In this document: positions 1-10,252 of the stretch, in pieces
How positions within the stretch are numbered: position 1 is the stretch's first letter
How the letters are laid out: every line of letters begins with the position of its first letter
IMG/VR virus record: IMGVR_UViG_2690316285_000005
Source: a virus
Taxonomy: Duplodnaviria; Heunggongvirae; Uroviricota; Caudoviricetes
Strand: one strand, 5' to 3'
Length of the DNA stretch: 10,252 nt
Notes under the pieces: generated by a model
Told to the model about the DNA's origin: nothing
The model's input: only the letters and a program-made list of their open reading frames with translations
Databases searched by the model: none
Translations under genes and position numbers: made by a program

Positions 1-149
1 ACTCGGTGGCCAGTTTTTGTTGACCACTTCACTACGGTTTAGGTTCGAACACTACGGATGTACCTCAGTACTCACCATCAGTACCTACGGGTAACAGCTT
101 CATCAAAGTACCATCATCTCAAGCAGGCAATCCTGCCGGGGCGGATCTG

Positions 150-2129
150 ATGGGAGTAGGGCTTGTAGATGGCACTACTGTAAGTTCTCTTGCGATGACA
201 AAGACGGGTACTCTAAGTATCTATGCAAAGAACGCTACAACCGCCTGGACACGCATATATACCGCTACACAGATGGACGGGCGATACGTACCCCTTACAC
301 GTACCATCAACGGCCATGCACTCACGGCCAATTTAGTACTGAACAGTGAAGATACAGGTTCAGTACCTGATACACGTACTGTGAATGGTAAGCCTCTAAG
401 TGAGGATGTAGTACTTACCAGTACTGATACCGGCTCTGTACCAGATACACGGACAGTTAATGGTCATGTACTCAGTGAAGATATAGTACTGAGTAGTGAA
501 GATACAGGTTCAGTACCTGATACACGTATGGTCAACGGTCATGTACTCAGTGAGGATGTAGTACTTACCAGTACTGATGTTGGCTTAGGGAAGGTTACAG
601 ATGATGCCCAGCTTACGATAGCAGGTAATCTAAGTGATCTGGGGGACGTGGAAGAAGCACGTATTAACCTTGCTGTTTACTCAATGGATGAAGTAGATGC
701 AGAGGTAACGGCTTTAGCTGACAGTATTACTTCCCTTGATTCCGCTTCCATGAAGAAAGCGAGTAACCTTTCTGATCTATCCAGTCTCTCTACAGCACGT
801 ACTAACCTACAGGTGAACCGTTTGACTCAGGGTGCTACGTACACCGATCTGATGAGTAATGACCTGACTAACCGTATCCGAATTCAGGATAACGGGGCAT
901 GGGGTGCAAGTACTGGTACTGGATGGATTGCTTTAGGTATAGGTCAGGGGGGGACAGGGGCTACAGATGCTTTGAGTGCTCGCCTAAACTTTCAGGTGGA
1001 TCGCTTTAATCAAGGTAGTAATTTAACAACTATTAAATCCGCTGATTCTTCCGCTGCATTAGTGGTTTATGATGGAGGGCAATGGGGTTCAGCTACATAT
1101 ATTGCGGGTGCTTTCACTGGCTGGAAAGCATTAGCAATTCCGCAGGGCGGTACTGGTGTTAAGACTCAGGCTGAGTTATGGCCTGCGATTCGTCCTACGG
1201 GTGCAACTTCTTTAGCAGGAGATCCTGTCTCTGATTCTGACGCGACTACCAAACGCTGGGTTGAAAACTTGCTGAGTAGTCGTACTTCAGTTAGTCCTCA
1301 ATGGGATGTTATTGCTTCTTCCCCTTCCTCTACGGCAATTGGTAGTTATGTAACTGGAGGGCGTATTCGTTCGATATGCAACATTGGTACATCAACTGAA
1401 ATATCTGGTGGTTTTCGGGTTGGTAAAACGATGGGACAGACTGGACAGGCTGATCTCACCCTTTTTATTTCTGAAAATGGTGCAGAGGATAAACTATGGG
1501 GGCTAAAAGGGCCGACTGGAACGATCCTAACTGATGTTCAATCAGGATGGATGACTAATACCGCTGTTTCGGGACCGACAGATGCCAATACCATCACCTT
1601 TAACGGTATGTATGCAGGGCCAGGTGACTCAGGTATTAACTATAGTGAAAAATATTCCCCTTTATTGCACATGCAAAGATACCCAGGGGCAAATCGCTCT
1701 CAGCTTCAGATAGACGGTGGTGGTACTTTAAGAGTACGAGGCGGGAACGGTACAACATGGTTTGGATGGTTAGTAATGCAAGCTCAAGGTACATCAGGTC
1801 GTGAGTTTAAAAGAGACATAACTCCAGCAAATCCAGTTGAAGCATTAGATCGGATAATGTCACAAGATTTAGTAACGTTTATCTACAAGGATGATGAACA
1901 AGAAAGGGTTAGGTTTGGTGTTATCGCCGAAGATGCTGAGTTGACTGCTCCGCAGTACATTAAGCATGATGAAGAAACAGTTGAAATAGAAGGGGAGATT
2001 GTCACTCGTGATCATCCACGTGTTGATTTAAATCCAATAGTGATGGACTTGATGGGAGCTATTCAAGCCCAACAAGAAGAAATTAATCAGCTAAAAGATT
2101 TAGTACAACAGCTATTAAATAATAAATAA
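150..2129 (+). CDS. Phage fiber protein (tail or neck/collar fiber) with tandem fiber repeats and a C-terminal intramolecular chaperone (peptidase S74-like) domain
   Basis: 659-codon ORF. Residues ~51-146 are four 25-aa repeats (consensus approx. RTVNGxxLSEDVVLTSxDTGSVPDT) typical of phage fiber repeats. The C-terminal ~110 aa (SGREFKRDITPANPVEALDRIMSQDLVTFIYKDD...GVIAEDAELTAP...) matches, from memory, the endosialidase/T5 pb1-type chaperone domain with its S-x4-K spacing. The ATG at 150 has only a weak SD, and the frame is open upstream to 24 with no start codon, so the true start is uncertain. Confidence 0.7.
   Translation: MGVGLVDGTTVSSLAMTKTGTLSIYAKNATTAWTRIYTATQMDGRYVPLTRTINGHALTANLVLNSEDTGSVPDTRTVNGKPLSEDVVLTSTDTGSVPDTRTVNGHVLSEDIVLSSEDTGSVPDTRMVNGHVLSEDVVLTSTDVGLGKVTDDAQLTIAGNLSDLGDVEEARINLAVYSMDEVDAEVTALADSITSLDSASMKKASNLSDLSSLSTARTNLQVNRLTQGATYTDLMSNDLTNRIRIQDNGAWGASTGTGWIALGIGQGGTGATDALSARLNFQVDRFNQGSNLTTIKSADSSAALVVYDGGQWGSATYIAGAFTGWKALAIPQGGTGVKTQAELWPAIRPTGATSLAGDPVSDSDATTKRWVENLLSSRTSVSPQWDVIASSPSSTAIGSYVTGGRIRSICNIGTSTEISGGFRVGKTMGQTGQADLTLFISENGAEDKLWGLKGPTGTILTDVQSGWMTNTAVSGPTDANTITFNGMYAGPGDSGINYSEKYSPLLHMQRYPGANRSQLQIDGGGTLRVRGGNGTTWFGWLVMQAQGTSGREFKRDITPANPVEALDRIMSQDLVTFIYKDDEQERVRFGVIAEDAELTAPQYIKHDEETVEIEGEIVTRDHPRVDLNPIVMDLMGAIQAQQEEINQLKDLVQQLLNNK
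300..587 (+). repeat. In-frame tandem repeat, 75-nt units (25 aa), about 4 copies, arranged as a 150-nt A-B super-unit duplicated
   Basis: Exact 34-nt identity between 345-378 and 495-528 (agtgaagatacaggttcagtacctgatacacgta) and exact 30-nt identity between 399-428 and 549-578 (agtgaggatgtagtacttaccagtactgat), both at a 150-nt offset. The protein repeats are in register. Confidence 0.85.
1794..2126 (+). other. Putative autoproteolytic intramolecular chaperone domain of the fiber protein (candidate catalytic Ser at codon 1794-1796, Lys at 1809-1811)
   Basis: The motif T-S-G-R-E-F-K followed by DITPANPVEALDRI...LVTFIYKDD...FGVIAEDAELTAPQYI resembles the S-D-x-R-L-K ... ALDKL ... GFIAQEVEEV pattern of peptidase S74 chaperone domains, recalled from memory. 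A coiled-coil-like tail (QAQQEEINQLKDLVQQLL) follows. Confidence 0.5.
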
Positions 2130-2137
2130 ATATAAAC

Positions 2138-2166
2138 GGGGTGAACGGATTCACTCCAATAAAATT
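2138..2166 (+). terminator. Possible weak intrinsic terminator or regulatory hairpin between the fiber gene and the major tail gene
   Basis: Imperfect hairpin GGGGTGAA-cgga-TTCACTCC (core stem gtgaa/ttcac, extendable with a G-U pair plus two G-C pairs), followed by an A/T-rich stretch aataaaattttctt. The T-tract is interrupted, so this is weak. Confidence 0.3.
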
Positions 2167-2187
2167 TTCTTATAAGGATATAAAACT

Positions 2188-2661
2188 ATGGCTATGGATA
2201 TTTTTTCCGGTGCTAACCTTACTGTAGAAGTAGGTTCAAGTGCTGGTAAAACAGTTGCTACTGACTTTGTAGAAGTACCAGAGGTAAACACCTTCAGTAC
2301 TTCAGGCTTTGAAAGTACTGTAATTAGCGTAAAAACATTCAATAATGCTTATGATCGTAAGCTATTGGGTACTAAGTCAATCCCGGACATTTCTCTTGCA
2401 GTTAACTACTTACCAGATAATGCAGTACATCAGAATTTAGAACAACTTGCAGACGATCAGAAACGTTGTCAGGTAAAACTAAGCTATTTTACCGATGCAA
2501 CTAAAAAAGAAGGTTTCTTTGTAATTTATACCTGCTTTGTTTCAAGTACCACTATCGGTGGTGATAAAGATGAAGTAGTAACTAAGACTTTCACCCTTGC
2601 AGTTGATGGTGAAGCAATTGATTCAGGTCTGATTACTCCAAAACCAGAATCGGGCGAATAA
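2188..2661 (+). CDS. Probable major tail (tube) protein
   Basis: 157-aa ORF with an AAGGA RBS about 9 nt upstream of the ATG. It sits immediately upstream of the chaperone pair and tape measure gene (conserved siphovirus synteny) and is followed by a strong terminator, consistent with a highly expressed structural gene. Acidic, Thr/Ser/Val-rich composition. The call rests on synteny and size; no motif was recognised. Confidence 0.6.
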   Translation: MAMDIFSGANLTVEVGSSAGKTVATDFVEVPEVNTFSTSGFESTVISVKTFNNAYDRKLLGTKSIPDISLAVNYLPDNAVHQNLEQLADDQKRCQVKLSYFTDATKKEGFFVIYTCFVSSTTIGGDKDEVVTKTFTLAVDGEAIDSGLITPKPESGE

Positions 2662-2669
2662 TAATAAAT

Positions 2670-2699
2670 AAAGGGAAGGTGCTCAACTTTCCCTTTTTT
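2670..2699 (+). terminator. Rho-independent terminator downstream of the major tail protein gene
   Basis: Stem AAAGGGAA (2670-2677) pairs with TTCCCTTT (2689-2696) around an 11-nt loop, followed by a T-run (ttttta), 9 nt after the stop codon. A partial terminator after the major tail gene is a common arrangement in siphoviruses. Confidence 0.6.
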
Positions 2700-2712
2700 A
2701 TTGGAGATGAAA

Positions 2713-3012
2713 ATGAATTTAAACGAATTGAAGAAAAAACTACAACCAGAATTAAAACCACATGAAGTAATGGGTGAAATCATCTTTATTCATCGTCCAA
2801 ATGGTCAGGATTTCCAGAAATGCACTGATGTGGCTAAAACTCTAATCCTATGTGTAAAAGATGAAAATGGTGATCCTATCTTCGCAGAAGAAGATATTGA
2901 TGGACGAATTAATGTTAACTCTATTGATTTTGTAATCCAGAATGAAATTTACTCAGCAATTATTGCTTTAATCAATACTGCGAAACCTGTAGATGAAGTA
3001 GAAAAAAAGTAA
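2713..3012 (+). CDS. Tail assembly chaperone (lambda G-like), the zero-frame product
   Basis: Small acidic ORF directly upstream of the tape measure gene. GGAG at 2703-2706 is 6 nt upstream of the ATG at 2713, which I prefer over the TTG at 2701 or the ATG at 2707. It ends at TAA 3010-3012 immediately after the slippery heptamer. Confidence 0.75.
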   Translation: MNLNELKKKLQPELKPHEVMGEIIFIHRPNGQDFQKCTDVAKTLILCVKDENGDPIFAEEDIDGRINVNSIDFVIQNEIYSAIIALINTAKPVDEVEKK

Positions 3013-3407
3013 GAGGTGATATCGAATTAAAGTACTTTTGTAAGATGGTTAACAAAAGAGGCTTATCACCTGAAGAATACTTTAGTTTAGATCCTGATGT
3101 ACTCAATATGCTTATGATCTACGATACTTTTATAGAACCATCCGGTACGCAGATTGAAATGATGAAACATGCGTACCAGTGTTACTACACCACTATCAGT
3201 AATGGCAACCTAACACCAGAAGCAAGGAAAAGTATCAAGGTACAGGATTTTGATTTTCTTGATGTGCTTAGTGATAGTACTAAGAGTACTTCAGAGAAAG
3301 CTGAAGAAAGAAAATTAAAAACTAAAGAGGCTCAATCCAATGATATTAAATCTATAGGGGAGTTAATTAAATCTCAGGTATTAGGAAAGAAAAAGAATGG
3401 CAAATAA
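2713..3407 (+). CDS. Tail assembly chaperone frameshift fusion (lambda GT-like), produced by a -1 shift at 3003-3009
   Basis: The upstream frame (start 2713, residue 1 mod 3) and the downstream ORF (3045-3407, residue 0 mod 3) are related by a -1 shift. The predicted junction reads ...VDEVEKK / VRGDIELKYFCKMVNKRGLSPEEY..., giving a product of about 231 aa. Its end overlaps the tape measure start (3397) by 11 nt. Confidence 0.65.
3003..3009 (+). promoter_or_regulatory. Slippery heptamer A_AAA_AAG for -1 programmed ribosomal frameshifting
   Basis: In the chaperone frame the codons are gaa-aaa-aag-taa. The heptamer A AAA AAG (3003-3009) is the classic dnaX-type shift site. The -1 frame is open from 2997 (a stop lies at 2994-2996) through 3407, and the downstream ORF has no SD before its first ATG at 3045. 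Confidence 0.7.
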
Positions 3408-5610
3408 TAATAGAATACGTGTAGATATTACGGGTGATTCTTCCGGTTTACAGCGTGCTTTAAGGTCTGGTACTGAATCATTAGAGGAATTTGGTAGTAC
3501 TGCTGGTGGCATTGTTGAAGAGTTCACAGGCCGAATAACTGGTATGGCTGGCGGGTTCGGTACTGCTATGACCGGGATCGCGGGTGCTGCGGCTATTGGT
3601 ATTGGTGGCCTGGCAGCATTAGTAGAATCATCACGTGAATATGTGCGTGAAATGAACCAGATCAGTAAGAGTACCGGATTGTCCGTGGTTCAGTTACAAC
3701 AGCTATCAGCGGCGTTTAGTGGCCTCGGTCTTGAGATTGATAAGTTTGGTGATTTCAACAAGGATACCTTGGATAAGCTCGGTGATGCTTTTCGTGCTGG
3801 CGGTGGTGTATCCGATGATCTTAAAGAATATGGACTCAACCTACAGGACTATAACAAGTACTTAAAACAGGCTGATGGTGGTATGCAGGCTGTGATCCAC
3901 ACCTTTTACGCCATGCGTGATGCAGGTAAATCACAGAGTGAAATAGTTAACGTAATGGAAACGTTAGCCAGTGACTCAAGCCACATGATTAGTACTCTTC
4001 AGCAGTTCAATAATGAGGCTCAAGCTACAGCCTATATCCAGTCACAAAATGCTGAAGTAACTAATGATGCTGCTGAAAAATATGCTGAATTCGATAAAAA
4101 CCTTGGGAAACTTACTACCAGCATTAAAGGTACTATTGCTGATGGCCTATCACCTTTAGTTAATGCCATGAACAGTGTCTATGATGCTGCAAATCAAAAA
4201 CCTCACGAGGCAGGTTTGTTTGAAGATCTGAATGAACGTATTAAAACTTCCAAGGGTTCTCTACAGGATATGTTGGATATCTGGGAAAAATTACGTACAG
4301 CAGGGGCATTAAACTACCAGGGTGCAGCACTCAATACTGGCATCATGGATGATAAGGGCAACAAGGGTAATGAGTTCGCTCAGGCTAAGGCACGTTTAGA
4401 AGAACTGGCAAACAACCTAAAGTCCGATGTTGCGGTTGCTACCGCTCCTACTGGCGGATGGGTTGATCAGGCAAAAGAAGCTGAAGATGCAGCGAAGAAG
4501 TTAGAACAACAACGTAAACAGGCAGAAGCGGCACAAAAGGCGGCAGATGCAAAACGCCTACAGGCTCAACGTAATCTGGAAGCTGCTCTTGCTCAAGTTG
4601 GGGAAGATGGTTTTCAGGTACGTCTACAGCAGTTCGACAGACAACAAAAGGCACTTCTTAAAACCATCACCGATAGTGCTCAAGTACTCGGTATCAATCC
4701 TGATGAAATGCTAAAGAACGCTACTGCATATGGTGCTAAACAACGTACTGATTTACTGAATTCAATGGTTGGTTATCAAGATCCTAATCAGGGTCTGAAA
4801 GATACCAATGCTCTTATTGGTTCCGGTCTACTCAATGACAATCAGAAGGGGTATCTGGCACAGCAACAGAATCAGCGTATCAATGGTGGTAATCCATTAG
4901 CCTATAACGATACCGATCAGAAGTTGAAAGATAACGCTGATGCTATGAATGCTGAACTTCAGCAGAATGAGTTGTTGCTGAAAGGCCATGAGGACTATGA
5001 GAAACGTAAAGCTGAGATCACGGCAAAGTACAATGCACAGGCCATCCAAATCAGTAACCAGAATGCACAGGATCAGTTAAGTATCTTCTCAAGTACTGCA
5101 CAGTCACTATCACAGGGCATGGTTGATGCGTTTGGGGAAAGTAGTGGGGCTGCACAAGCTGCATTTACCCTAAGTAAGAGCATAAGCATTGCACAGACAG
5201 TACTTTCAATTCAGTCAGCATTGGCCCAAGCACTCGCTACCCCTTGGCCAGCTTCATTGGCAAACTATGCACAAGTACTTTCACTTGGTATGTCGATTAT
5301 TAGTACTGCAAAGGGTGCTGCTGCTGGTCAGTTCCATGGCGGGGTAGATGAACTACCAGCAAGTTATGACAACAAATCATTTGTACTTAAGCAGGGCGAG
5401 AGAGTGGTGCAGCCTGAAGCGAATAAGAAATTAACAGCATTCTTGGATAAACAAGAAGGTGGAAGTACTTCAGGTGATATTACCGTTAACGCACCATTGA
5501 TCATCCAGGGTGATGTAGCTGATGATGACAAGAAATTTAATGAGATGCTTAAGAAACACGCCAATAGTGTTTCTCAAGCTGTGAGAAGTAGTCAAAAACG
5601 TAATACATAA
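3397..5610 (+). CDS. Tail tape measure protein
   Basis: 737-aa ORF immediately after the G/GT chaperone pair. It has a Gly/Ala-rich hydrophobic segment near the N-terminus (GMAGGFGTAMTGIAGAAAIGIGGLAAL), long Ala/Gln/Lys-rich, probably coiled-coil, stretches (EQQRKQAEAAQKAADAKRLQAQRNLEAALAQ) and a hydrophobic C-terminal region. This is the typical tape measure architecture. Confidence 0.85.
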   Translation: MANNNRIRVDITGDSSGLQRALRSGTESLEEFGSTAGGIVEEFTGRITGMAGGFGTAMTGIAGAAAIGIGGLAALVESSREYVREMNQISKSTGLSVVQLQQLSAAFSGLGLEIDKFGDFNKDTLDKLGDAFRAGGGVSDDLKEYGLNLQDYNKYLKQADGGMQAVIHTFYAMRDAGKSQSEIVNVMETLASDSSHMISTLQQFNNEAQATAYIQSQNAEVTNDAAEKYAEFDKNLGKLTTSIKGTIADGLSPLVNAMNSVYDAANQKPHEAGLFEDLNERIKTSKGSLQDMLDIWEKLRTAGALNYQGAALNTGIMDDKGNKGNEFAQAKARLEELANNLKSDVAVATAPTGGWVDQAKEAEDAAKKLEQQRKQAEAAQKAADAKRLQAQRNLEAALAQVGEDGFQVRLQQFDRQQKALLKTITDSAQVLGINPDEMLKNATAYGAKQRTDLLNSMVGYQDPNQGLKDTNALIGSGLLNDNQKGYLAQQQNQRINGGNPLAYNDTDQKLKDNADAMNAELQQNELLLKGHEDYEKRKAEITAKYNAQAIQISNQNAQDQLSIFSSTAQSLSQGMVDAFGESSGAAQAAFTLSKSISIAQTVLSIQSALAQALATPWPASLANYAQVLSLGMSIISTAKGAAAGQFHGGVDELPASYDNKSFVLKQGERVVQPEANKKLTAFLDKQEGGSTSGDITVNAPLIIQGDVADDDKKFNEMLKKHANSVSQAVRSSQKRNT

Positions 5611-5620
5611 GAAAGCCCAG

Positions 5621-6193
5621 TTAGGGATTTTCCGTGTGATAAGACAAATATTGTGAAAGAGAAGATGAAAGGGTATAGAGATTGTAATACTCTTCCCGCA
5701 ATAATTTAACTTTAGGTGGTGAGTATTTAATATTGTATGCAAGCTGTGTTGAAAGAGTACGTAATCTCGATAATGAATAATAACTCTTTACGATGGCATC
5801 TACTTCTTTTTTTGGGAGTGATGCTAATTTTTCTAATTGGGAATAATATACATCATCATGCAAATAAGAAACGGCAGTTGCTACTCTTTTAATAGCTTCT
5901 GTATCTTCAGTTGGAAGAGGAATACATATTTCATATGTGCCTAACACCTGAGACTCATCGCCACCAGTAGCAAGAGCTAAAAGGTTATTGTTGATTTCGC
6001 TCAATAAGATTACACGCATCTTAAAAACATCATCTGAACTTTCTTTCCATTTATCATATGCGTTATAGCCTATTTGGCCTGCAAATAACAACATAGCAAC
6101 GATGACGGATGCAGCCTGCCAATCAAGCCTGTTAAAAAAAATACGAATCGAGGTTTTTAAATAAATAAAGAAAGAAGATATTCGAGGTAACAA
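5621..6193 (-). CDS. Hypothetical protein, probably membrane-anchored; moron-like accessory gene encoded antisense to the tail operon
   Basis: The only long ORF on either strand in the 584-bp gap between the tape measure stop (5610) and the next tail gene (6195), and it fills the gap exactly. Read from the TTG at 6193 (an AGGA lies about 8 nt upstream on the minus strand) it gives 190 aa with a hydrophobic segment WQAASVIVAMLLFAGQIGYNAY near residues 25-46. The region is visibly more AT-rich than the flanking genes. The start codon is uncertain: the first in-frame ATG corresponds to 6094-6092 but would cut the hydrophobic segment. No known domain was recognised. Confidence 0.5.
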   Translation of the reverse strand: MLPRISSFFIYLKTSIRIFFNRLDWQAASVIVAMLLFAGQIGYNAYDKWKESSDDVFKMRVILLSEINNNLLALATGGDESQVLGTYEICIPLPTEDTEAIKRVATAVSYLHDDVYYSQLEKLASLPKKEVDAIVKSYYSLSRLRTLSTQLAYNIKYSPPKVKLLREEYYNLYTLSSSLSQYLSYHTENP

Positions 6194-6194
6194 A

Positions 6195-6752
6195 ATGGCA
6201 TCCTTTTCAAATCAAATAAAAGTAACGAACTTTCAAATTAAAAGTACTGAACCGATCTATTCTAATCAAACATGGACAGGTCAACGTATCATGAGAAGTA
6301 CTGGAATTCAATACTATCAAATTCAGTTCACCCTTAATTTTAATCCTGCATCACTAAATGAAGTGAATAGCTTTTTAGCTCAATATGCACAGGGCAAACC
6401 TTTCACTATGTCATTGGGGCTTGCAGGTACATATTACGGTAAACAGACTGGTGCAGTAACCGCTACTGCTCTCACTAAACCGGGTAATATGGTTGTACCT
6501 ATCAGTACTAACACATTAGCTGTGGGTGAGTGGGTACAGTTTTCCAATCACAATAAGCTATATCGAATCGTAGAACGTACCAGTACTTCAATTACTATTT
6601 TCCCTGCTCTACAAAATACAGTACAGGCAAGTGAAGCACTCAAATATAACAATCTCATGATCGAGGCTGTATTAGATCCAGACAATGATTATTCATTGCC
6701 TATTGGGAACATCATGAATATTACATTGAAAGCAACGGAGAATATCATCTAA
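6195..6752 (+). CDS. Minor tail protein, distal tail (lambda gpM-like) candidate
   Basis: 185-aa ORF, first gene after the tape measure gene in the + direction, with a GAGGT RBS 6 nt upstream of the ATG. The segment YYQIQFTLNFNPASLNEVNSFLAQYAQGKPF resembles the lambda gpM family pattern (..YSVTLS...LESFLEEHGG.KSF..) as I recall it. The stop overlaps the next start (TAATG). Confidence 0.5.
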   Translation: MASFSNQIKVTNFQIKSTEPIYSNQTWTGQRIMRSTGIQYYQIQFTLNFNPASLNEVNSFLAQYAQGKPFTMSLGLAGTYYGKQTGAVTATALTKPGNMVVPISTNTLAVGEWVQFSNHNKLYRIVERTSTSITIFPALQNTVQASEALKYNNLMIEAVLDPDNDYSLPIGNIMNITLKATENII

Positions 6753-7375
6753 TGGACTCAGGTATATATACTAATGCTAATCTTCTTAAGTACTGGAAGT
6801 TAGTCAGAGGTACAACCAAGACAAGATTAACACTAATGGAAATTATGAGCTTAGGCGTTAATGTTACTTGTTTTGATGTACTACCAAAAGGTACTAATGG
6901 TTTTCACTGGACGGATTCACTAATTGATATAGATCTGGATGGTTATAAGTACATAAGTTTCCCCGACATTATCAGTGGTTCATTACCTTCATATTCTGAA
7001 CAAAAGGGCATGTCTAATGATGCTATCAATTTTAAAATTAGCAATGTAAACGCCTCGGTTCGTGCTCTTGCCCTTGGTGGTTTCTTGAAAGATGCACAGA
7101 TGAATATCAAGTTAGTAATTCTCAATCCATATGATAGTACTGTAATTGATTCAATGCTCATGTTTACGGGGTTTATTGACTATGTACAGGCAGTAACTGA
7201 TCCAAATCAGAAGCAAAACGAAATGACTATATATGTGAATTCTGTCTATAAGAAATTAGACAGACAACCTGCATTAATTGCCGCCAACTCAGTATATCAA
7301 TCTTACTATAGAAATGATGAGTACTTTAGTCTGTTAGGTCAAGTTAATCAAAATCAGAACTGGAAATACAAGTAA
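6752..7375 (+). CDS. Minor tail protein (lambda gpL-like) candidate
   Basis: 207-aa ORF, translationally coupled on both sides through overlapping TAATG stop/start sequences at 6750-6754 and 7373-7377. The position matches lambda L. There is a loose resemblance to gpL in the region GYKYISFPDIISGSLPSYSEQKGMSNDAINFKISNVN. It lacks a Cys cluster. Confidence 0.5.
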   Translation: MDSGIYTNANLLKYWKLVRGTTKTRLTLMEIMSLGVNVTCFDVLPKGTNGFHWTDSLIDIDLDGYKYISFPDIISGSLPSYSEQKGMSNDAINFKISNVNASVRALALGGFLKDAQMNIKLVILNPYDSTVIDSMLMFTGFIDYVQAVTDPNQKQNEMTIYVNSVYKKLDRQPALIAANSVYQSYYRNDEYFSLLGQVNQNQNWKYK

Positions 7376-7779
7376 TGAAAAATCTACATAATGAAGTAAT
7401 GAGTATTATTCAGTACTCAATTGATAACCCATATAAGTATGGTGATAACGATTGCAACATTATAGTACTACGCCTTATTGATTTAATTAATGGTACTACA
7501 CAGTTAACTAATCGCCAGTATTCGAGCATTAAAGAAGGTATAGCAGGTTTAAACAAGGAAGGATGGAACCATACAGGGGAAATTGTTGAAGCGTACTGTA
7601 AGCCAGTACAAGCCACTATAGACGGTGATATCTGGTTAGATCCTGACAACCCATTAATTATGGCAGTAGTGGCATCTGGTCGGGTACTTGGAGTAAATGC
7701 TGATCATGATGGTTTCGAACTTCAACCAAAACCAACAGAGGGAACATATTACAGAGTAAGGAAACAGAGAGATGGGTAA
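7375..7779 (+). CDS. Tail protein with a putative NlpC/P60 (C40 peptidase) fold, resembling the C-terminal half of lambda gpK
   Basis: 134-aa ORF with the motif YKYGDNDCNIIVLRL (candidate catalytic Cys) and downstream GDIWL...VVASGRVLGVNADHDG (candidate His), resembling the gpK NlpC/P60 half (G.TDC...GDVLL...H). No JAMM/MPN motif was found. It overlaps the next gene by 8 nt. Confidence 0.5.
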   Translation: MKNLHNEVMSIIQYSIDNPYKYGDNDCNIIVLRLIDLINGTTQLTNRQYSSIKEGIAGLNKEGWNHTGEIVEAYCKPVQATIDGDIWLDPDNPLIMAVVASGRVLGVNADHDGFELQPKPTEGTYYRVRKQRDG

Positions 7780-10228
7780 GAGTTTAGGGGGCTTTTTTGG
7801 AGCCATAATTACGGCAGTTGTCGTCGCGGCTGCTGTGTACTTTTCAGGAGGTACAGCATTAGCAGCAATAGGTTGGGGTGCAGCAGCCGGATCTTTGTCA
7901 TTAGTTGCAAGTTCTATGTTAGGTCAAATCGGGGTTTCTGGATACGGTGATGTAGCAGACTCACTAAGTAGAAGTACTTCACCAACTACTGGATTACCCG
8001 TTATATACGGTGGAGAACTACCACATAAAAATGGTGTATCAGGCGGTTCCTTCATCCTAACCGGAAGCATAGTAGCCTGGTACAACGTACCAAATTCTGA
8101 TTCTCAGTACTTATTCTCAGAACAGGCTGTAGCATATGCTGGTGTAGAAAAGCATATCGAGCAAATCTATATTGATAATGAGCCAGTACTTGCAGTACCG
8201 ATTACAGCAGAGGGTGTAGTACCTAAAGAAAGTATTGCAGCGAAGTACCAGAACTATTTGCAATTAGAAGTACGATTTGGTGGTGACTATACGAGTACTA
8301 AAACTCTTGCTGCAAAATATGCTGGTTCGAAATGGACAAATAAATTTCTTGGTAAGGGTATTGTTAGTATCAGTACCGTTATCTTAAAAACTCAAGATTC
8401 ATTAGAAAATAATATTCTTGTTAATGATCAATTCGCTTTAACTGTAGAAATGAAAGGGCAGGTGATTTATGATTTTGTTGATGGTACTTATAAAGCAAGT
8501 AGTAACCCTCCTTCAATTATCTATGATTACTTAACAAATTCAATCTATGGTATGGGTATTGATCCATCATTGATTAATACCGATACGTTTGCAGAAACCG
8601 CAGCATATTGTGATGCTTTTGAATATTATGCTAATGGTGCTATCAGTTATCAAAAAACCTATAAAGATAATATTGAAAATATCTGTCAGTCATTTGGCGG
8701 CATCATGTATGTACATGCCGGACAAATCTGTATTACCACAGACCGCAAATCGGTATCCGTAGCCTCATTTGATGAGCGTAACATGGTAGGGGCGGTACAG
8801 GTTTCTACTTCTGGCGGTACTGACTACTTCAACGTAGTCGATTGCAAGTTTACTAACCCTGAATCGATGTACACCACTGACGTAGTACGTATCCCTTCCG
8901 ATATCACTACGGATGAAGCAGTACAGCATGATGGACAGGTCATAGCATTATCACGCGATTACTCATGGTCATATGATCAAGAGGTGATTGCAAAAATGGC
9001 TAACGTTGATGTACTCAAGGCTAAGTATGCCCTGCGTACTATCAGCTTCACCACAAGTGAAGGTTGGGATCTCGAAGTATGGGATGCGATCAATGTCAGC
9101 AATGAAGAACTCGCTATCTCAGGCAAATTTAAAGTACTCAATAAAGATATCAGCACCGATCAAGAGAACGTTGGCTATGTAACCATCACGGCAGTAGAAG
9201 CACCTGATGCAATGTATGATGGTATTGATCCGGGTATCTGGTCGCCTGGTGGGGTAATTAACTTCCCTGAACTACAGGTACTACCGCCAACGAACCTACA
9301 GGCAGTACGTAAGGGGAATACTACTTCTGGTTCAATCGTGGATCTTACCTGGGATGCTTCACCAGATCCGTATCTGCGTGGGTACTATGTTTACTACCGT
9401 CTTAACGGTTCCAGTACCTGGACGTATGCGGGGCAGACTGGCGTACAGAAGCTTGATTATGAATTATTTGGATTGTCTGATACTGCAAGCTACGACTTTT
9501 CGGTAGAGGCTTACAACAACTTAGGGCTGGTATCCAAGAAGCTTTCCCTAACTGGCATTGTTCCAACATTCAACTTTGCACTACCTGCGGTAACGCGTGT
9601 AGTACTGACAAATAAAACAGAATCAGCGTATGTAACTGACTCACCAGATTTCAATATTGCCTGGGATTCACAAAAAGATATCAGAGTGAATAACCGATCA
9701 TTTAGTGAGTACTTCAAGTATTACGTTATTAAAATCTATGACGGTACTAAATTAGTAGATACATTCTATACGCAAAGTAATGCCTTTAATTTCACTCTTG
9801 AAATGAACCGTCTGAAAGTACGTAAGCCTACCATTGGTATTATCGCACAGGGATTTAATGATGGTACATATTCAGAGGAAGTGAAAATAACCGTAGAGAA
9901 TAAACAGTGTGGTTTAGTAGAGGATGTTAGCTTTACGGGTGGTTTTGGTAATTTGTTTGCTTCATGGACTAAATCTACTGAACGTGATTATGCAGGTGCG
10001 ATTATCAGTATTGTTAATGGTACTAATACACGTATATTCACCAGTTATGCACCTGAATTTGATTCAATACCAAACATCACTGATGGTGAGTATAAGGTTA
10101 AGATGGGATTCTTTGATGTGTTTGGTACTGATGATATTCAATATTGTCCAGAACAAACAATCAGTATCAACTCCAAGTACCAGTTTACCGAAGATGATGC
10201 AGAGGCAATTAACGGGATTCTGAGGTAG
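7772..10228 (+). CDS. Central tail fiber / host specificity protein (lambda gpJ-like) with an N-terminal domain resembling the C-terminal part of lambda gpI
   Basis: 818-aa ORF. N-terminus GGFFGAIITAVVVAAAVYFSGGTALAAIGWGAAAG...LPVIYGGE resembles the Gly/Ala-rich hydrophobic C-terminal region of lambda tail assembly protein I. Segment SNPPSIIYDYLTNSIYGMGID...AAYCD (about 8500-8640) matches the conserved gpJ-family motif (NNMAWCLWDMLTHPRYGMG...QYCD). A fibronectin type III-like module (LTWDASPDPYLRGYYVYYRLNGSSTWTYAG...YDFSVEAYNNLGL) lies at about 9296-9550. Confidence 0.8.
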   Translation: MGKSLGGFFGAIITAVVVAAAVYFSGGTALAAIGWGAAAGSLSLVASSMLGQIGVSGYGDVADSLSRSTSPTTGLPVIYGGELPHKNGVSGGSFILTGSIVAWYNVPNSDSQYLFSEQAVAYAGVEKHIEQIYIDNEPVLAVPITAEGVVPKESIAAKYQNYLQLEVRFGGDYTSTKTLAAKYAGSKWTNKFLGKGIVSISTVILKTQDSLENNILVNDQFALTVEMKGQVIYDFVDGTYKASSNPPSIIYDYLTNSIYGMGIDPSLINTDTFAETAAYCDAFEYYANGAISYQKTYKDNIENICQSFGGIMYVHAGQICITTDRKSVSVASFDERNMVGAVQVSTSGGTDYFNVVDCKFTNPESMYTTDVVRIPSDITTDEAVQHDGQVIALSRDYSWSYDQEVIAKMANVDVLKAKYALRTISFTTSEGWDLEVWDAINVSNEELAISGKFKVLNKDISTDQENVGYVTITAVEAPDAMYDGIDPGIWSPGGVINFPELQVLPPTNLQAVRKGNTTSGSIVDLTWDASPDPYLRGYYVYYRLNGSSTWTYAGQTGVQKLDYELFGLSDTASYDFSVEAYNNLGLVSKKLSLTGIVPTFNFALPAVTRVVLTNKTESAYVTDSPDFNIAWDSQKDIRVNNRSFSEYFKYYVIKIYDGTKLVDTFYTQSNAFNFTLEMNRLKVRKPTIGIIAQGFNDGTYSEEVKITVENKQCGLVEDVSFTGGFGNLFASWTKSTERDYAGAIISIVNGTNTRIFTSYAPEFDSIPNITDGEYKVKMGFFDVFGTDDIQYCPEQTISINSKYQFTEDDAEAINGILR

Positions 10229-10252
10229 CCTGAGTTTAACGGACACTCCTTC

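Follow-up and report, generated by a model that had tools for sequence, protein, structure and literature searches.

The DNA analysed here (the window) is a stretch of 10,252 nucleotides. It is a whole contig from a bacterial draft assembly and carries the tail module of a ~36-kb temperate siphovirus with a serine integrase. The first gene, cut by the contig start, encodes a tail fibre. Its conserved N-proximal part (33–970, plus strand) maps to positions 17436–18298 of F1, a complete relative of 35.6 kb, inside a gene for a 1016-aa fibre. Tandem Repeats Finder located three copies of a 75-bp (25-aa) tandem repeat in this part of the gene (351–578, plus strand). The fibre C-terminal domain (971–2124, plus strand), a Peptidase_S74 chaperone, does not align to the 95%-identical relative. 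It is followed on the plus strand (2125–5620) by the tail tube protein (2188–2661), the tail assembly chaperone ORFs (2701–3012 and 3045–3407) and the tape measure protein (3397–5610). A minus-strand cargo ORF (5621–6193; 190 aa, PHROG 3829, unknown function, 34% GC) interrupts the module; its slot is empty in the relative L002 and holds a different gene (DUF6216) in F1. The last plus-strand segment (6194–10221) encodes the distal tail protein (6195–6752), a tail protein (6752–7375), a DUF6950 protein (7375–7779) and a J-like tail tip protein (7772–10228), which is truncated by the contig end. Positions 1–32 and 10222–10252 do not align to the phage relative. The former matches E. coli plasmids and is probably an assembly join rather than part of the phage. 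The latter matches Stx-phage or E. coli prophage DNA and supplies the stop codon that truncates the J-like ORF (818 aa here, 1100 aa in the relative). A megablast search of the phage collection matched only the last 44 bases of the window, and protein searches found no cultured relative closer than DCP80, at 28–35% identity.

To assess the abundance of the palindrome AGTACT, for which the initial annotation had found roughly three dozen occurrences by a manual scan against an estimate of three or four, we counted it exactly and compared the count with dinucleotide-preserving shuffles. The window contains 38 AGTACT against 3.84±2.02 in the shuffles (largest 10) and 123 GTAC against 39.05±5.9 (largest 57). 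AGTACT is the most frequent hexamer in the window, and GTAC is its most over-represented tetramer (3.35x). The AGTACT sites start at 67, 335, 410, 420, 485, 560, 570, 909, 2296, 2314, 3031, 3276, 3285, 3496, 3857, 3991, 4683, 5092, 5199, 5274, 5302, 5464, 6243, 6297, 6504, 6582, 6789, 7136, 7320, 7412, 7464, 7973, 8106, 8185, 8294, 9133, 9601 and 9708. The observation made in the initial annotation is therefore real, and stronger than was stated there. Of the 16 coordinates it listed, 13 lie within 2 bases of a true site, while three are wrong by 25–58 bases (3251 should be 3276, 3962 should be 3991 and 8048 should be 8106). The different codon phases it described were also confirmed, with 19 AGT|ACT, 11 xxA|GTA|CTx and 6 xAG|TAC|Txx. 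The hexamer count is fully predicted by its 5-mers (36.5 expected), so the primary signal is the GTAC core plus independent preferences for A on the 5′ side and T on the 3′ side. The initial annotation had focused on the hexamer, whereas the conserved unit is the GTAC core.

The density of sites in the window is highest in 33–970, with 23.7 GTAC/kb and 8.2 AGTACT/kb. The block 335–578, which contains the tandem repeat, carries 6 of the 38 AGTACT sites, five of them inside the repeat itself, and without this block 32 AGTACT and 111 GTAC are still left. The copies thus do not originate from a longer repeated unit, as only this one repeat was found and the flanks beyond ±2 are random. The fibre C-terminal domain has no AGTACT and only 7.8 GTAC/kb, which fits a more recently exchanged segment. 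Densities are 8.9 GTAC/kb and 4.0 AGTACT/kb in 2125–5620, and 14.6 GTAC/kb and 4.0 AGTACT/kb in 6194–10221. The minus-strand cargo ORF has only 1 GTAC and no AGTACT, and is an island that lacks the signature.

Next, we asked whether codon and amino-acid usage account for the excess, the outcome that the initial annotation had set as grounds for abandoning its claim. Within-gene synonymous shuffling gave 8.5±2.6 AGTACT (maximum 18) against 36 observed inside genes, and 63.8±5.6 GTAC (maximum 83) against 118. Codon permutation, pooled-usage and uniform-synonymous nulls were lower still, and the observed counts exceeded every one of 2000 shuffles under these four codon-aware nulls. The synonymous null is conservative, because it keeps a codon usage that the motif has itself inflated (GTA is 52% of Val codons). 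Codon and amino-acid bias thus contributes only part of the effect, as the initial annotation had proposed.

To test whether the enrichment persists outside plus-strand coding sequence, a comparison also suggested beforehand, we analyzed F1. All three codon phases are enriched (GTAC 112/137/67 against 63/79/31, z 8–10). Minus-strand genes have 26 against 12, and intergenic DNA has 40 GTAC against 12.4 and 14 AGTACT against 1.3. The excess is as strong in intergenic stretches next to the integrase and between divergent genes. GTAC ranks 1 of 256 tetramers in F1. The flank logo is cAGTACTg, symmetric in every phase (A at -1/T at +4, C at -2/G at +5), with nothing seen beyond ±2. In addition, reverse-complement word pairs containing GTAC are more symmetric than other words in the same single-strand coding context (median asymmetry 0.11 against 0.27, p=0.017; AGTAC 183 and GTACT 176). 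The spacing of the sites is random (gap CV 0.99, gaps essentially geometric), without organised arrays or helical phasing, so there is no architectural hint of cooperative binding; only codon periodicity and a 27-bp spike were seen.

We then compared related genomes to see if the sites are maintained. Against a 76%-identical relative, 59% of GTAC sites are conserved compared with 37% of all 4-mers (rank 3 of 222). Synonymous third positions inside GTAC are conserved 0.79 against 0.61 for the same codons elsewhere (p=2e-7), in the same direction for GTA, TAC, GGT, CGT, AAG and CAG and for five relatives. Higher conservation would also be produced by a repair or conversion process that restores mutated sites, or by low mutability of GTAC, and sequence comparison alone does not separate these from selection. 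A parsimony polarisation of gains and losses on tip versus internal branches, which might have done so, was abandoned, because the subclades are 70–80% identical and occupancy is near saturation, so that parallel gains would mislead. Indeed, 54% of GTAC-encodable dipeptides carry GTAC (70% and 77% in two phases), against 24–25% in DCP80 and henriette and 17% in lambda, and encodable dipeptides are themselves more frequent.

The trait is old and specific to this family. GTAC is 1.8–3.4x in all 21 IMG/VR relatives, and is also enriched in prophages of Pluralibacter, Enterobacter, Scandinavium, E. coli, Edwardsiella and Salmonella, and in those of Serratia and a second E. coli whose helicases are only 32–45% identical. 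DCP80, a distant relative with homologous structural genes and the same GC, has a ratio of 1.01, and lambda has 0.86. Within the prophages the signal tracks the phage core genome. Its density collapses at prophage–host junctions, and GTAC is under-represented in the host flanks (0.29–0.77x). It is also low in cargo genes of equal GC, such as the ATP-dependent nuclease (0.5/kb), the Mrr-like ORF (1.1) and the minus-strand ORF of the window (1.7), and low-GC cargo genes in the same prophages lack the excess.

The same genomes show textbook avoidance of restriction-type palindromes, as is reported for phages (Sharp 1986; Rocha et al. 2001). GCGC is absent family-wide, CTAG or TGCA is nearly absent in some members, and GGWCC is 1 against 10 in the window. 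GGTACC and CGTACG, which contain the core, are purged in all but the most divergent members: GGTACC is 0 in 12 genomes (about 67 expected in total) and CGTACG is 1 (about 26 expected). AGTACT itself is 0 against 12.7 in the family member L023, which kept the GTAC excess, and 6 against 15.6 in L058. The GTAC core therefore departs from avoidance with the opposite sign, as it is enriched and conserved although it lies inside several restriction sites and is evidently exposed. Enrichment of a palindrome is unusual for a phage, as the initial annotation had pointed out.

The interpretation offered in the initial annotation was partly supported. It correctly took the DNA to be phage DNA, and of its three explanations a functional motif is the one favoured by the evidence, although the function is not identified. 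Host codon adaptation is rejected, since the excess survives synonymous shuffling, occurs in intergenic DNA and in all phases, and the host flanks are GTAC-poor. DNA modification that makes the site harmless is not supported.

We consider the AGTACT excess to be the most visible part of a GTAC-centred palindromic motif with an optimal form of about 8 bp, c-A-GTAC-T-g, in which the two half-sites contribute independently. Our analysis demonstrates that the motif is hyper-abundant throughout the core genome of a family of ~36-kb temperate siphoviruses of Enterobacterales with a serine integrase, an SF2 helicase and lambda-type terminase and portal. It also demonstrates that the excess lies in the double-stranded DNA rather than in codons, is strand-symmetric, near saturation, inherited across the family and kept in place at synonymous sites, and coexists with efficient purging of restriction-type palindromes, including GTAC-containing hexamers in most members. 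Beyond this, we infer that GTAC is a high-density recognition element for a two-fold-symmetric factor acting along the whole phage chromosome, each site contributing a small fitness benefit comparable in strength to codon-bias selection. As the phage is GTAC-rich and GCGC-free while its hosts are GTAC-poor and GCGC-rich, the motif could serve to mark or handle phage DNA as distinct from host DNA. We regard this selection-maintained reading as about as likely as not. No reader has been identified, and the window, which holds tail genes only, has no bearing on one. The family-conserved small GIY-YIG nuclease and its 192-aa neighbour are untested candidates, while the small methyltransferase of the family is unlikely to be the reader. 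Searches of solved structures for these three proteins were uninformative. A large early protein considered as a possible reader turned out to be an SF2 DExH helicase, present in all family branches sampled; its structure was not predicted. Literature searches for GTAC or AGTACT enrichment, or for a cognate methylase, in enterobacterial phages found nothing relevant.

Among the alternatives, a neutral directional process survives best, though we consider it unlikely. Biased mismatch repair or gene conversion, as in the model of Elhai for HIP1 (PMC4390886), or unusually low mutability of GTAC, would continually create or restore GTAC in DNA replicating as this phage, with no function attached to the sites. 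The pattern does look like amelioration, with saturated core genes and unsaturated, recently acquired cargo of the same GC. The roughly 2-fold lower synonymous divergence inside sites matches the roughly 2-fold excess over the codon-aware null, as a reduced loss rate would predict, and a GIY-YIG nuclease and a methyltransferase-like gene are present in the family. However, one-off neighbours of GTAC are not depleted (GTAT/ATAC 0.9–1.04, GTGC/GCAC 1.04–1.21, GTTC/GAAC 0.86–1.14), which led us to reject VSP-like biased repair with a depleted precursor. Only GGAC/GTCC is low, and that fits GGWCC avoidance. Double deamination of methylated GCGC to GTAC was likewise rejected, because the intermediates GTGC/GCAC are not unusual and the GTAC excess (about 85 per 10 kb) far exceeds the GCGC deficit (about 17 per 10 kb). 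The methyltransferase is a pseudogene in many fully enriched members, and its homologue sits in a GTAC-depleted phage. Moreover, a prophage is replicated and repaired by its host for most of its history, and host DNA is GTAC-poor. The pressure has also raised the frequency of GTAC-encodable dipeptides, and the same kind of site conservation in HIP1 was read as selection by Xu et al. (PMC5861425).

Selection on DNA mechanics, without a sequence-specific reader, is doubtful. The TA step inside GTAC is an exceptionally deformable hinge, flanked here by CA/TG steps, and a hinge about every 90 bp would ease bending, packaging, cyclisation or topoisomerase capture. The sites are dispersed at random like a bulk property, the preferred extension c-A...T-g adds two more pyrimidine-purine steps, and the trait follows the family that shares head and packaging genes. 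On the other hand, other flexible TA- or CA-containing palindromes are not enriched (TATA 0.65, ATAT 0.77, TTAA 0.83, CATG 0.77), and T at -2, which would add another TA step, is not favoured. The ~36-kb genome is small for a lambda-type head, so there is no obvious packaging stress, and DCP80, henriette and lambda show no such excess.

Tolerance through self-modification, in which the phage modifies GTAC or AGTACT and the harmless site drifts upward, appears still less likely. A small amino-methyltransferase-like gene (motif I ELCAGIGRLS, motif IV NPPF), the only methyltransferase-like gene, sits at the right end of many family members and is itself very GTAC-dense (29.9/kb). AGTACT is tolerated while GGTACC and CGTACG are purged in most members, which a hexamer-specific methylase could explain, and Elhai found that each hyper-abundant palindrome co-occurs with a matching methyltransferase. 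However, modification explains tolerance, not a 3- to 12-fold excess or conservation at synonymous sites. The gene is truncated, frameshifted or mutated in many fully enriched members, and was not found in the members L007 and L016, which keep normal AGTACT levels. Examination of the genomic contexts of diverged homologues placed a 67%-identical homologue in a T7-like Yersinia prophage with GTAC at 0.19x and no GTAC in the gene itself, so no link between methyltransferase and trait was found. The protein family carries only generic annotation and a weak MTS-domain match, so its specificity is unknown and even a DNA substrate is unproven. No base-hypermodification genes were found in the 35.6-kb genome; the chemical state of virion DNA was not measured. 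The purging of GGTACC and CGTACG in most members, and of AGTACT in L023, also shows that sites containing the core are still selected against.

An RNA-level role of GUAC or AGUACU, for example in processing, stability or RNA–RNA pairing, is improbable but not formally excluded, because a palindrome reads the same in transcripts from either strand and most intergenic DNA in a phage is transcribed. There is no reason, however, for an RNA motif to have two-fold symmetric flank preferences in every codon phase or balanced reverse-complement word pairs; Rfam was not searched for a matching RNA family. Finally, a full explanation by codon usage, amino-acid composition, the tail-fibre repeat or low GC content is refuted by the codon-aware nulls, the intergenic excess and the DCP80 ratio.

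The closest counterparts are HIP1 (GCGATCGC) and the alternate highly iterated palindromes of cyanobacteria (Xu, Lawrence and Durand 2018, PMC5861425; Elhai 2015, PMC4390886). Like these, the motif is a short palindrome, many-fold over-represented against composition- and codon-aware expectations, dispersed within genes in any frame and between genes, and conserved between related genomes beyond background. In both cases the function is unknown, and selection versus biased repair is the central open question. What differs is the carrier, a 36-kb temperate phage family instead of a cellular chromosome, and the core, which is 4 bp and AT-balanced with graded flanks instead of a GC-rich octamer. 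The excess is 3-fold for the core and 10–12-fold for the hexamer, against 15–300-fold for HIP1. The co-occurrence with a cognate methyltransferase reported for HIPs was not found here, and the motif coexists with strong restriction-site purging. The chromosome-scale periodicity reported for HIP1 (10–90 kb) was not measured, as it cannot exist in a genome of about 36 kb. Chi, KOPS and DNA uptake sequences are likewise high-copy short words, maintained because a protein machine reads them along the whole replicon and each copy contributes a small benefit. Those words are asymmetric and orientation-dependent, with known readers (RecBCD, FtsK and the competence machinery), whereas the motif described here is palindromic, shorter and has no known reader. 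Chi (GCTGGTGG) is not enriched, with 0–2 copies per genome, and a Chi-like function was rejected. SlmA-binding sites of Enterobacterales (12-bp consensus GTGAGTACTCAC, with GT/AC at the ends) share the AGTACT core and the bacterial order. However, G at -2 and C at +5, which the SlmA consensus requires, are the disfavoured bases here (G at -2 is 0.06–0.14), and no signal extends to ±5–6, so we rejected this identity.

Phage genomes are expected to lose short palindromes because these are restriction targets, and this family does so efficiently for GCGC, CTAG, TGCA, GGWCC, GGTACC and CGTACG. In the same DNA more than half of all positions that could encode GTAC do so, and the sites are held at synonymous positions across members as distant as 32–45% helicase identity and across at least seven host genera. 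Some DNA-level benefit or drive must therefore be strong enough to outweigh the restriction risk of roughly 250–380 exposed GTAC sites per genome, and no known phage function accounts for that. A more speculative and rather unlikely possibility, of high interest if true, is that the family writes a compositional barcode into its own DNA, GTAC-saturated and GCGC-free, the mirror image of its hosts, which family-encoded proteins would read to tell phage from host DNA. For example, the small GIY-YIG nuclease or its 192-aa partner might cut or spare DNA according to GCGC, and bind, nick or protect at cAGTACTg. That would be a sequence-density-based self/non-self system in a temperate phage, with no chemical modification involved. 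Thirty years of work have not established a function for HIP1, and a 36-kb inducible prophage with the same kind of signal is a far more tractable system. The GTAC-rich, GCGC-free signature also marks the boundaries of these prophages and flags recently acquired cargo genes inside them.

The window contained 38 copies of AGTACT, compared with 3.84±2.02 in dinucleotide-preserving shuffles (largest 10), and 123 copies of GTAC, compared with 39.05±5.9 (largest 57). AGTACT was the most frequent hexamer and GTAC the most over-represented tetramer. The excess of AGTACT described in the initial annotation was thus confirmed by exact counting. Of the 16 site coordinates it had listed, 13 lay within 2 bases of a true site and three were off by 25-58 bases. 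The hexamer count was predicted by its 5-mers (36.5 expected), and the signal is therefore a GTAC core with independent preferences for A on the 5' side and T on the 3' side. A 75-bp tandem repeat in the fibre gene lies in a block that accounts for 6 AGTACT sites, and 32 sites remained when this block was left out.

The ORFs of the window form a siphovirus tail module consisting of fibre, tail tube, assembly chaperones, tape measure, distal tail protein, a DUF6950 protein and a J-like tip protein. The window is the whole of contig CXDI01000144.1 from NCBI assembly GCA_001250495.1. Both contig ends (1-32 and 10222-10252) carry tags of ~31 bp that do not align to relatives and match E. coli plasmids or Stx-phage DNA. 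The right tag supplies the stop codon that shortens the J-like protein to 818 aa, against 1100 aa in the relative. These tags are probably assembly artefacts, and they hint that the sequenced isolate is E. coli/Shigella-like. One minus-strand ORF of unknown function (190 aa, PHROG 3829; 5621-6193) is inserted between the tape measure and distal tail genes. This position is a variable cargo slot, which holds a DUF6216 membrane-type gene in a complete relative, F1, and is empty in the Pluralibacter prophage; both cargo genes lack the GTAC signature. The tail fibre gene (150-2129) is mosaic. Its repeat-containing N-proximal part, including the 75-bp, 25-aa triple repeat at 351-578, is conserved with F1, whereas its C-terminal receptor-binding part (971-2124, with a Peptidase_S74 chaperone domain) does not align to this 95%-identical relative.

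Relatives were found as integrated prophages of about 37% GC inside 50-65% GC chromosomes of Pluralibacter, Enterobacter and Scandinavium, and as many IMG/VR contigs. In Pluralibacter gergoviae ATCC 33028 the prophage lies near 330-348 kb of NZ_BCZS01000001. We rebuilt one complete contig of 35,568 bp, about 95% identical to the window, which we refer to as F1 (IMGVR_UViG_3300048924_000240). From left to right, F1 encodes a large serine integrase; an HNH nuclease; an orphan early protein, shown from its conserved motifs to be an SF2 DExH helicase; a Nu1-like small terminase, a gpA-type large terminase, a lambda-type portal and a protease-capsid fusion; the tail module; a lysozyme, a small GIY-YIG nuclease and variable cargo; and a small methyltransferase-like gene at the right end. 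In the chromosome of E. coli ESBLEC_MG48 (locus L052, 8305-10768) the prophage is inserted in ybhA, beside modABC and gal, by its large serine recombinase, which leaves a truncated ybhA. Other members sit next to different host genes, so attachment sites vary. No cultured phage was closer than E. coli phage DCP80, at 28-35% protein identity.

Next, we asked whether codon usage explains the excess. The initial annotation had stated in advance that the signal would be fully explained by codon and amino-acid usage if the exact counts fell within the distribution of synonymously shuffled versions of the same genes, and this was not the case. Within-gene synonymous shuffling gave 8.5±2.6 AGTACT (max 18) against 36 observed in genes, and 63.8±5.6 GTAC (max 83) against 118. 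Three other codon-aware nulls gave lower expectations. The persistence of the enrichment outside plus-strand coding sequence, also proposed beforehand as a check, was examined in F1, where the excess was present in each compartment tested. In plus-strand genes we observed 112, 137 and 67 GTAC in phases 0, 1 and 2, against null values of 63, 79 and 31, and 53, 21 and 30 AGTACT, against 13, 6 and 6.5. Minus-strand genes contained 26 GTAC against 12 and 6 AGTACT against 1.5, and intergenic DNA (3.7 kb) contained 40 GTAC against 12.4 and 14 AGTACT against 1.3. Flank preferences were two-fold symmetric in every phase when compared with phase-matched backgrounds, with A at -1/T at +4 and, more weakly, C at -2/G at +5; nothing was detectable beyond ±2. 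Reverse-complement word pairs that contain GTAC were much more balanced than ordinary words in the same one-strand coding context (median asymmetry 0.11 against 0.27, p=0.017). The signal therefore lies in double-stranded DNA.

To assess how widely the trait is distributed, we compared relatives and more distant phages. GTAC was enriched 1.8-3.4-fold in all 21 IMG/VR relatives, about 1.9-fold in the Edwardsiella and Salmonella members, and 1.9-3.0-fold in Serratia and E. coli members whose helicases are only 32-45% identical. DCP80 has the same GC and homologous structural proteins but a ratio of 1.01; Vibrio phage henriette has 1.32 and lambda 0.86. GTAC density collapsed at every prophage-host junction, and host flanks were GTAC-poor at 0.29-0.77x. 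Inside the prophages, cargo genes of equally low GC lacked the excess, namely an ATP-dependent nuclease (0.5 GTAC/kb), an Mrr-like ORF (1.1/kb), HNH (3.8/kb), the DUF6216 gene (4.8/kb) and the window's own minus-strand ORF (1.7/kb). The region between the helicase and the small terminase is a hotspot for variable, GTAC-poor cargo, some of it defence-like (related loci L052 15779-19146, L057 13049-19266, L058 13149-17387 and L059 12109-14403). This cargo includes an ATP-dependent nuclease, SMODS plus SLATT genes, a PLD-family nuclease, HNH, an Hha-like protein and Tlde1-domain proteins.

GTAC sites were conserved between genomes far more than average 4-mers, 59% against 37% at 76% nucleotide identity (rank 3 of 222). 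Synonymous third positions inside GTAC were conserved at 0.79, against 0.61 for the same codons elsewhere (p=2e-7), and the direction was the same for six codon types and five relatives. Of all dipeptides that could encode GTAC, 54% do so (70% and 77% in two of the phases), compared with 24-25% in DCP80 and henriette and 17% in lambda. In addition, GTAC-encodable dipeptides are themselves more frequent in this family. The sites are spaced at random.

These phages purge other palindromes efficiently. GCGC is zero, or one copy, in essentially every family member, and is zero or near zero also in an unrelated T7-like Yersinia prophage, although hosts carry it at 1.5-3 times expectation. CTAG is zero in the window's subclade and common in others, and TGCA is nearly absent in another subclade, so that CTAG and TGCA avoidance switches on and off between close relatives. 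In the window itself CTAG is 0 (36.7 expected), GCGC 0 (16.9), GGWCC 1 (10.1) and GGNCC 4 (16.9). Among the four palindromic hexamers built on GTAC, GGTACC (KpnI-type) is 0 in 12 genomes, where about 67 are expected from the 5-mers, and CGTACG is 1, where about 26 are expected. TGTACA is as expected. AGTACT is as expected from its 5-mers, with exceptions. The relative L023 (IMGVR_UViG_2778261418_000019, 1-11779) has none, where 12.7 are expected, yet keeps 91 GTAC (2.2-fold). The relatives L021 and L018 and the E. coli member L058 are partly depleted, L058 (7120-21938) having 6 against 15.6. This suggests ScaI-type restriction in the hosts of L023 and L058. The Edwardsiella member keeps 5 GGTACC, so that purge depends on the host clade; a KpnI-type enzyme is predicted in the hosts of the GGTACC-free clade. 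Selection evidently removes GTAC-containing sites when a cognate enzyme is present, which would be unnecessary if the core were chemically protected. The core is thus exposed to restriction and not masked.

We then examined the methyltransferase-like gene as a possible partner of the motif. It lies at the extreme right end of the prophage (loci L012 18715-19323, L004 18469-19209 and L054 10001-10714) and has amino-methyltransferase motifs (ELCAGIGRLS, NPPF), but its only resemblances are weak ones, to M.TaqI and to the MTS domain, and its substrate is unknown. The gene is widespread in Enterobacterales. Hundreds of near-identical copies exist, and the methyltransferase cluster alone is on 887 Citrobacter freundii contigs. 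It is intact in some members of the phage family, but in many fully enriched members it is truncated, frameshifted or mutated. A 67%-identical homologue lies in the unrelated T7-like Yersinia prophage, in which GTAC is strongly depleted (7 against 36.7, rank 255 of 256), and that copy of the gene contains no GTAC at all. The co-occurrence rule that Elhai described for cyanobacterial HIPs (PMC4390886) therefore does not hold here.

The analysis establishes that the palindrome excess is at the DNA level, two-fold symmetric and near saturation, that it belongs to the core genome of this phage family and has persisted through deep divergence and many host genera, and that it is kept at synonymous sites despite restriction risk. 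From this we infer, without direct demonstration, that a two-fold symmetric reader acts on these sites along the whole chromosome and that each site contributes a small benefit. The interpretation offered in the initial annotation was partly supported. The phage is GTAC-rich and GCGC-free while its hosts are the reverse, so the two palindromes together form a sharp phage-versus-host discriminator. This suggests, but does not show, a role in self/non-self handling of DNA.

The reader was not identified. A SegE-like GIY-YIG nuclease of ~145 aa is conserved in every family member sampled (37-84% identity), and lies beside the lysozyme gene wherever gene order was examined (loci L012 and L053). 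A 192-aa protein is conserved family-wide as well (33-76%) and follows it in L012 and L053. The positions concerned are L012 15251-16273, L053 8265-9282 and L055 9564-10001. This conservation is unlike a sporadic homing endonuclease. Both proteins are absent from the GTAC-depleted T7-like prophage, and searches for structural relatives of either were uninformative. They remain untested candidates.

The main rival is a neutral repair or conversion drive, or low mutability of GTAC, which would also give amelioration-like patterns and apparent conservation. Against it are the lack of depleted one-off neighbours, the absence of a linked enzyme, and the fact that prophages are replicated by GTAC-poor hosts. 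A purely mechanical role is suggested by a report that TA within GTAC is the most deformable step; however, other flexible palindromes are not enriched. An RNA-level role is unlikely, given the symmetric flanks and the balanced reverse-complement pairs.

The closest known phenomenon is HIP1 of cyanobacteria, a hyper-abundant, conserved palindrome of unknown function (Xu et al., 2018, PMC5861425; Elhai, 2015, PMC4390886). The present case differs in that the carrier is a small temperate phage, the motif is a 4-bp AT-balanced core with graded flanks, the magnitude is smaller, there is no linked methyltransferase, and the motif coexists with vigorous restriction-site purging. Full-text searches found no report of GTAC or AGTACT enrichment in phages. 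The phenomenon is solidly established, its mechanism is not, and the system is experimentally tractable. Finally, at about 5490-5580 of F1 (the same coordinates in locus L045), a 23-bp perfect inverted repeat (AATCTCTATTTCTATGTACTCGC ... GCGAGTACATAGAAATAGAGATT) encloses three further GTACs and carries one in each arm. It lies in the 555-bp spacer after the helicase-region gene and could be an origin or a regulatory structure.
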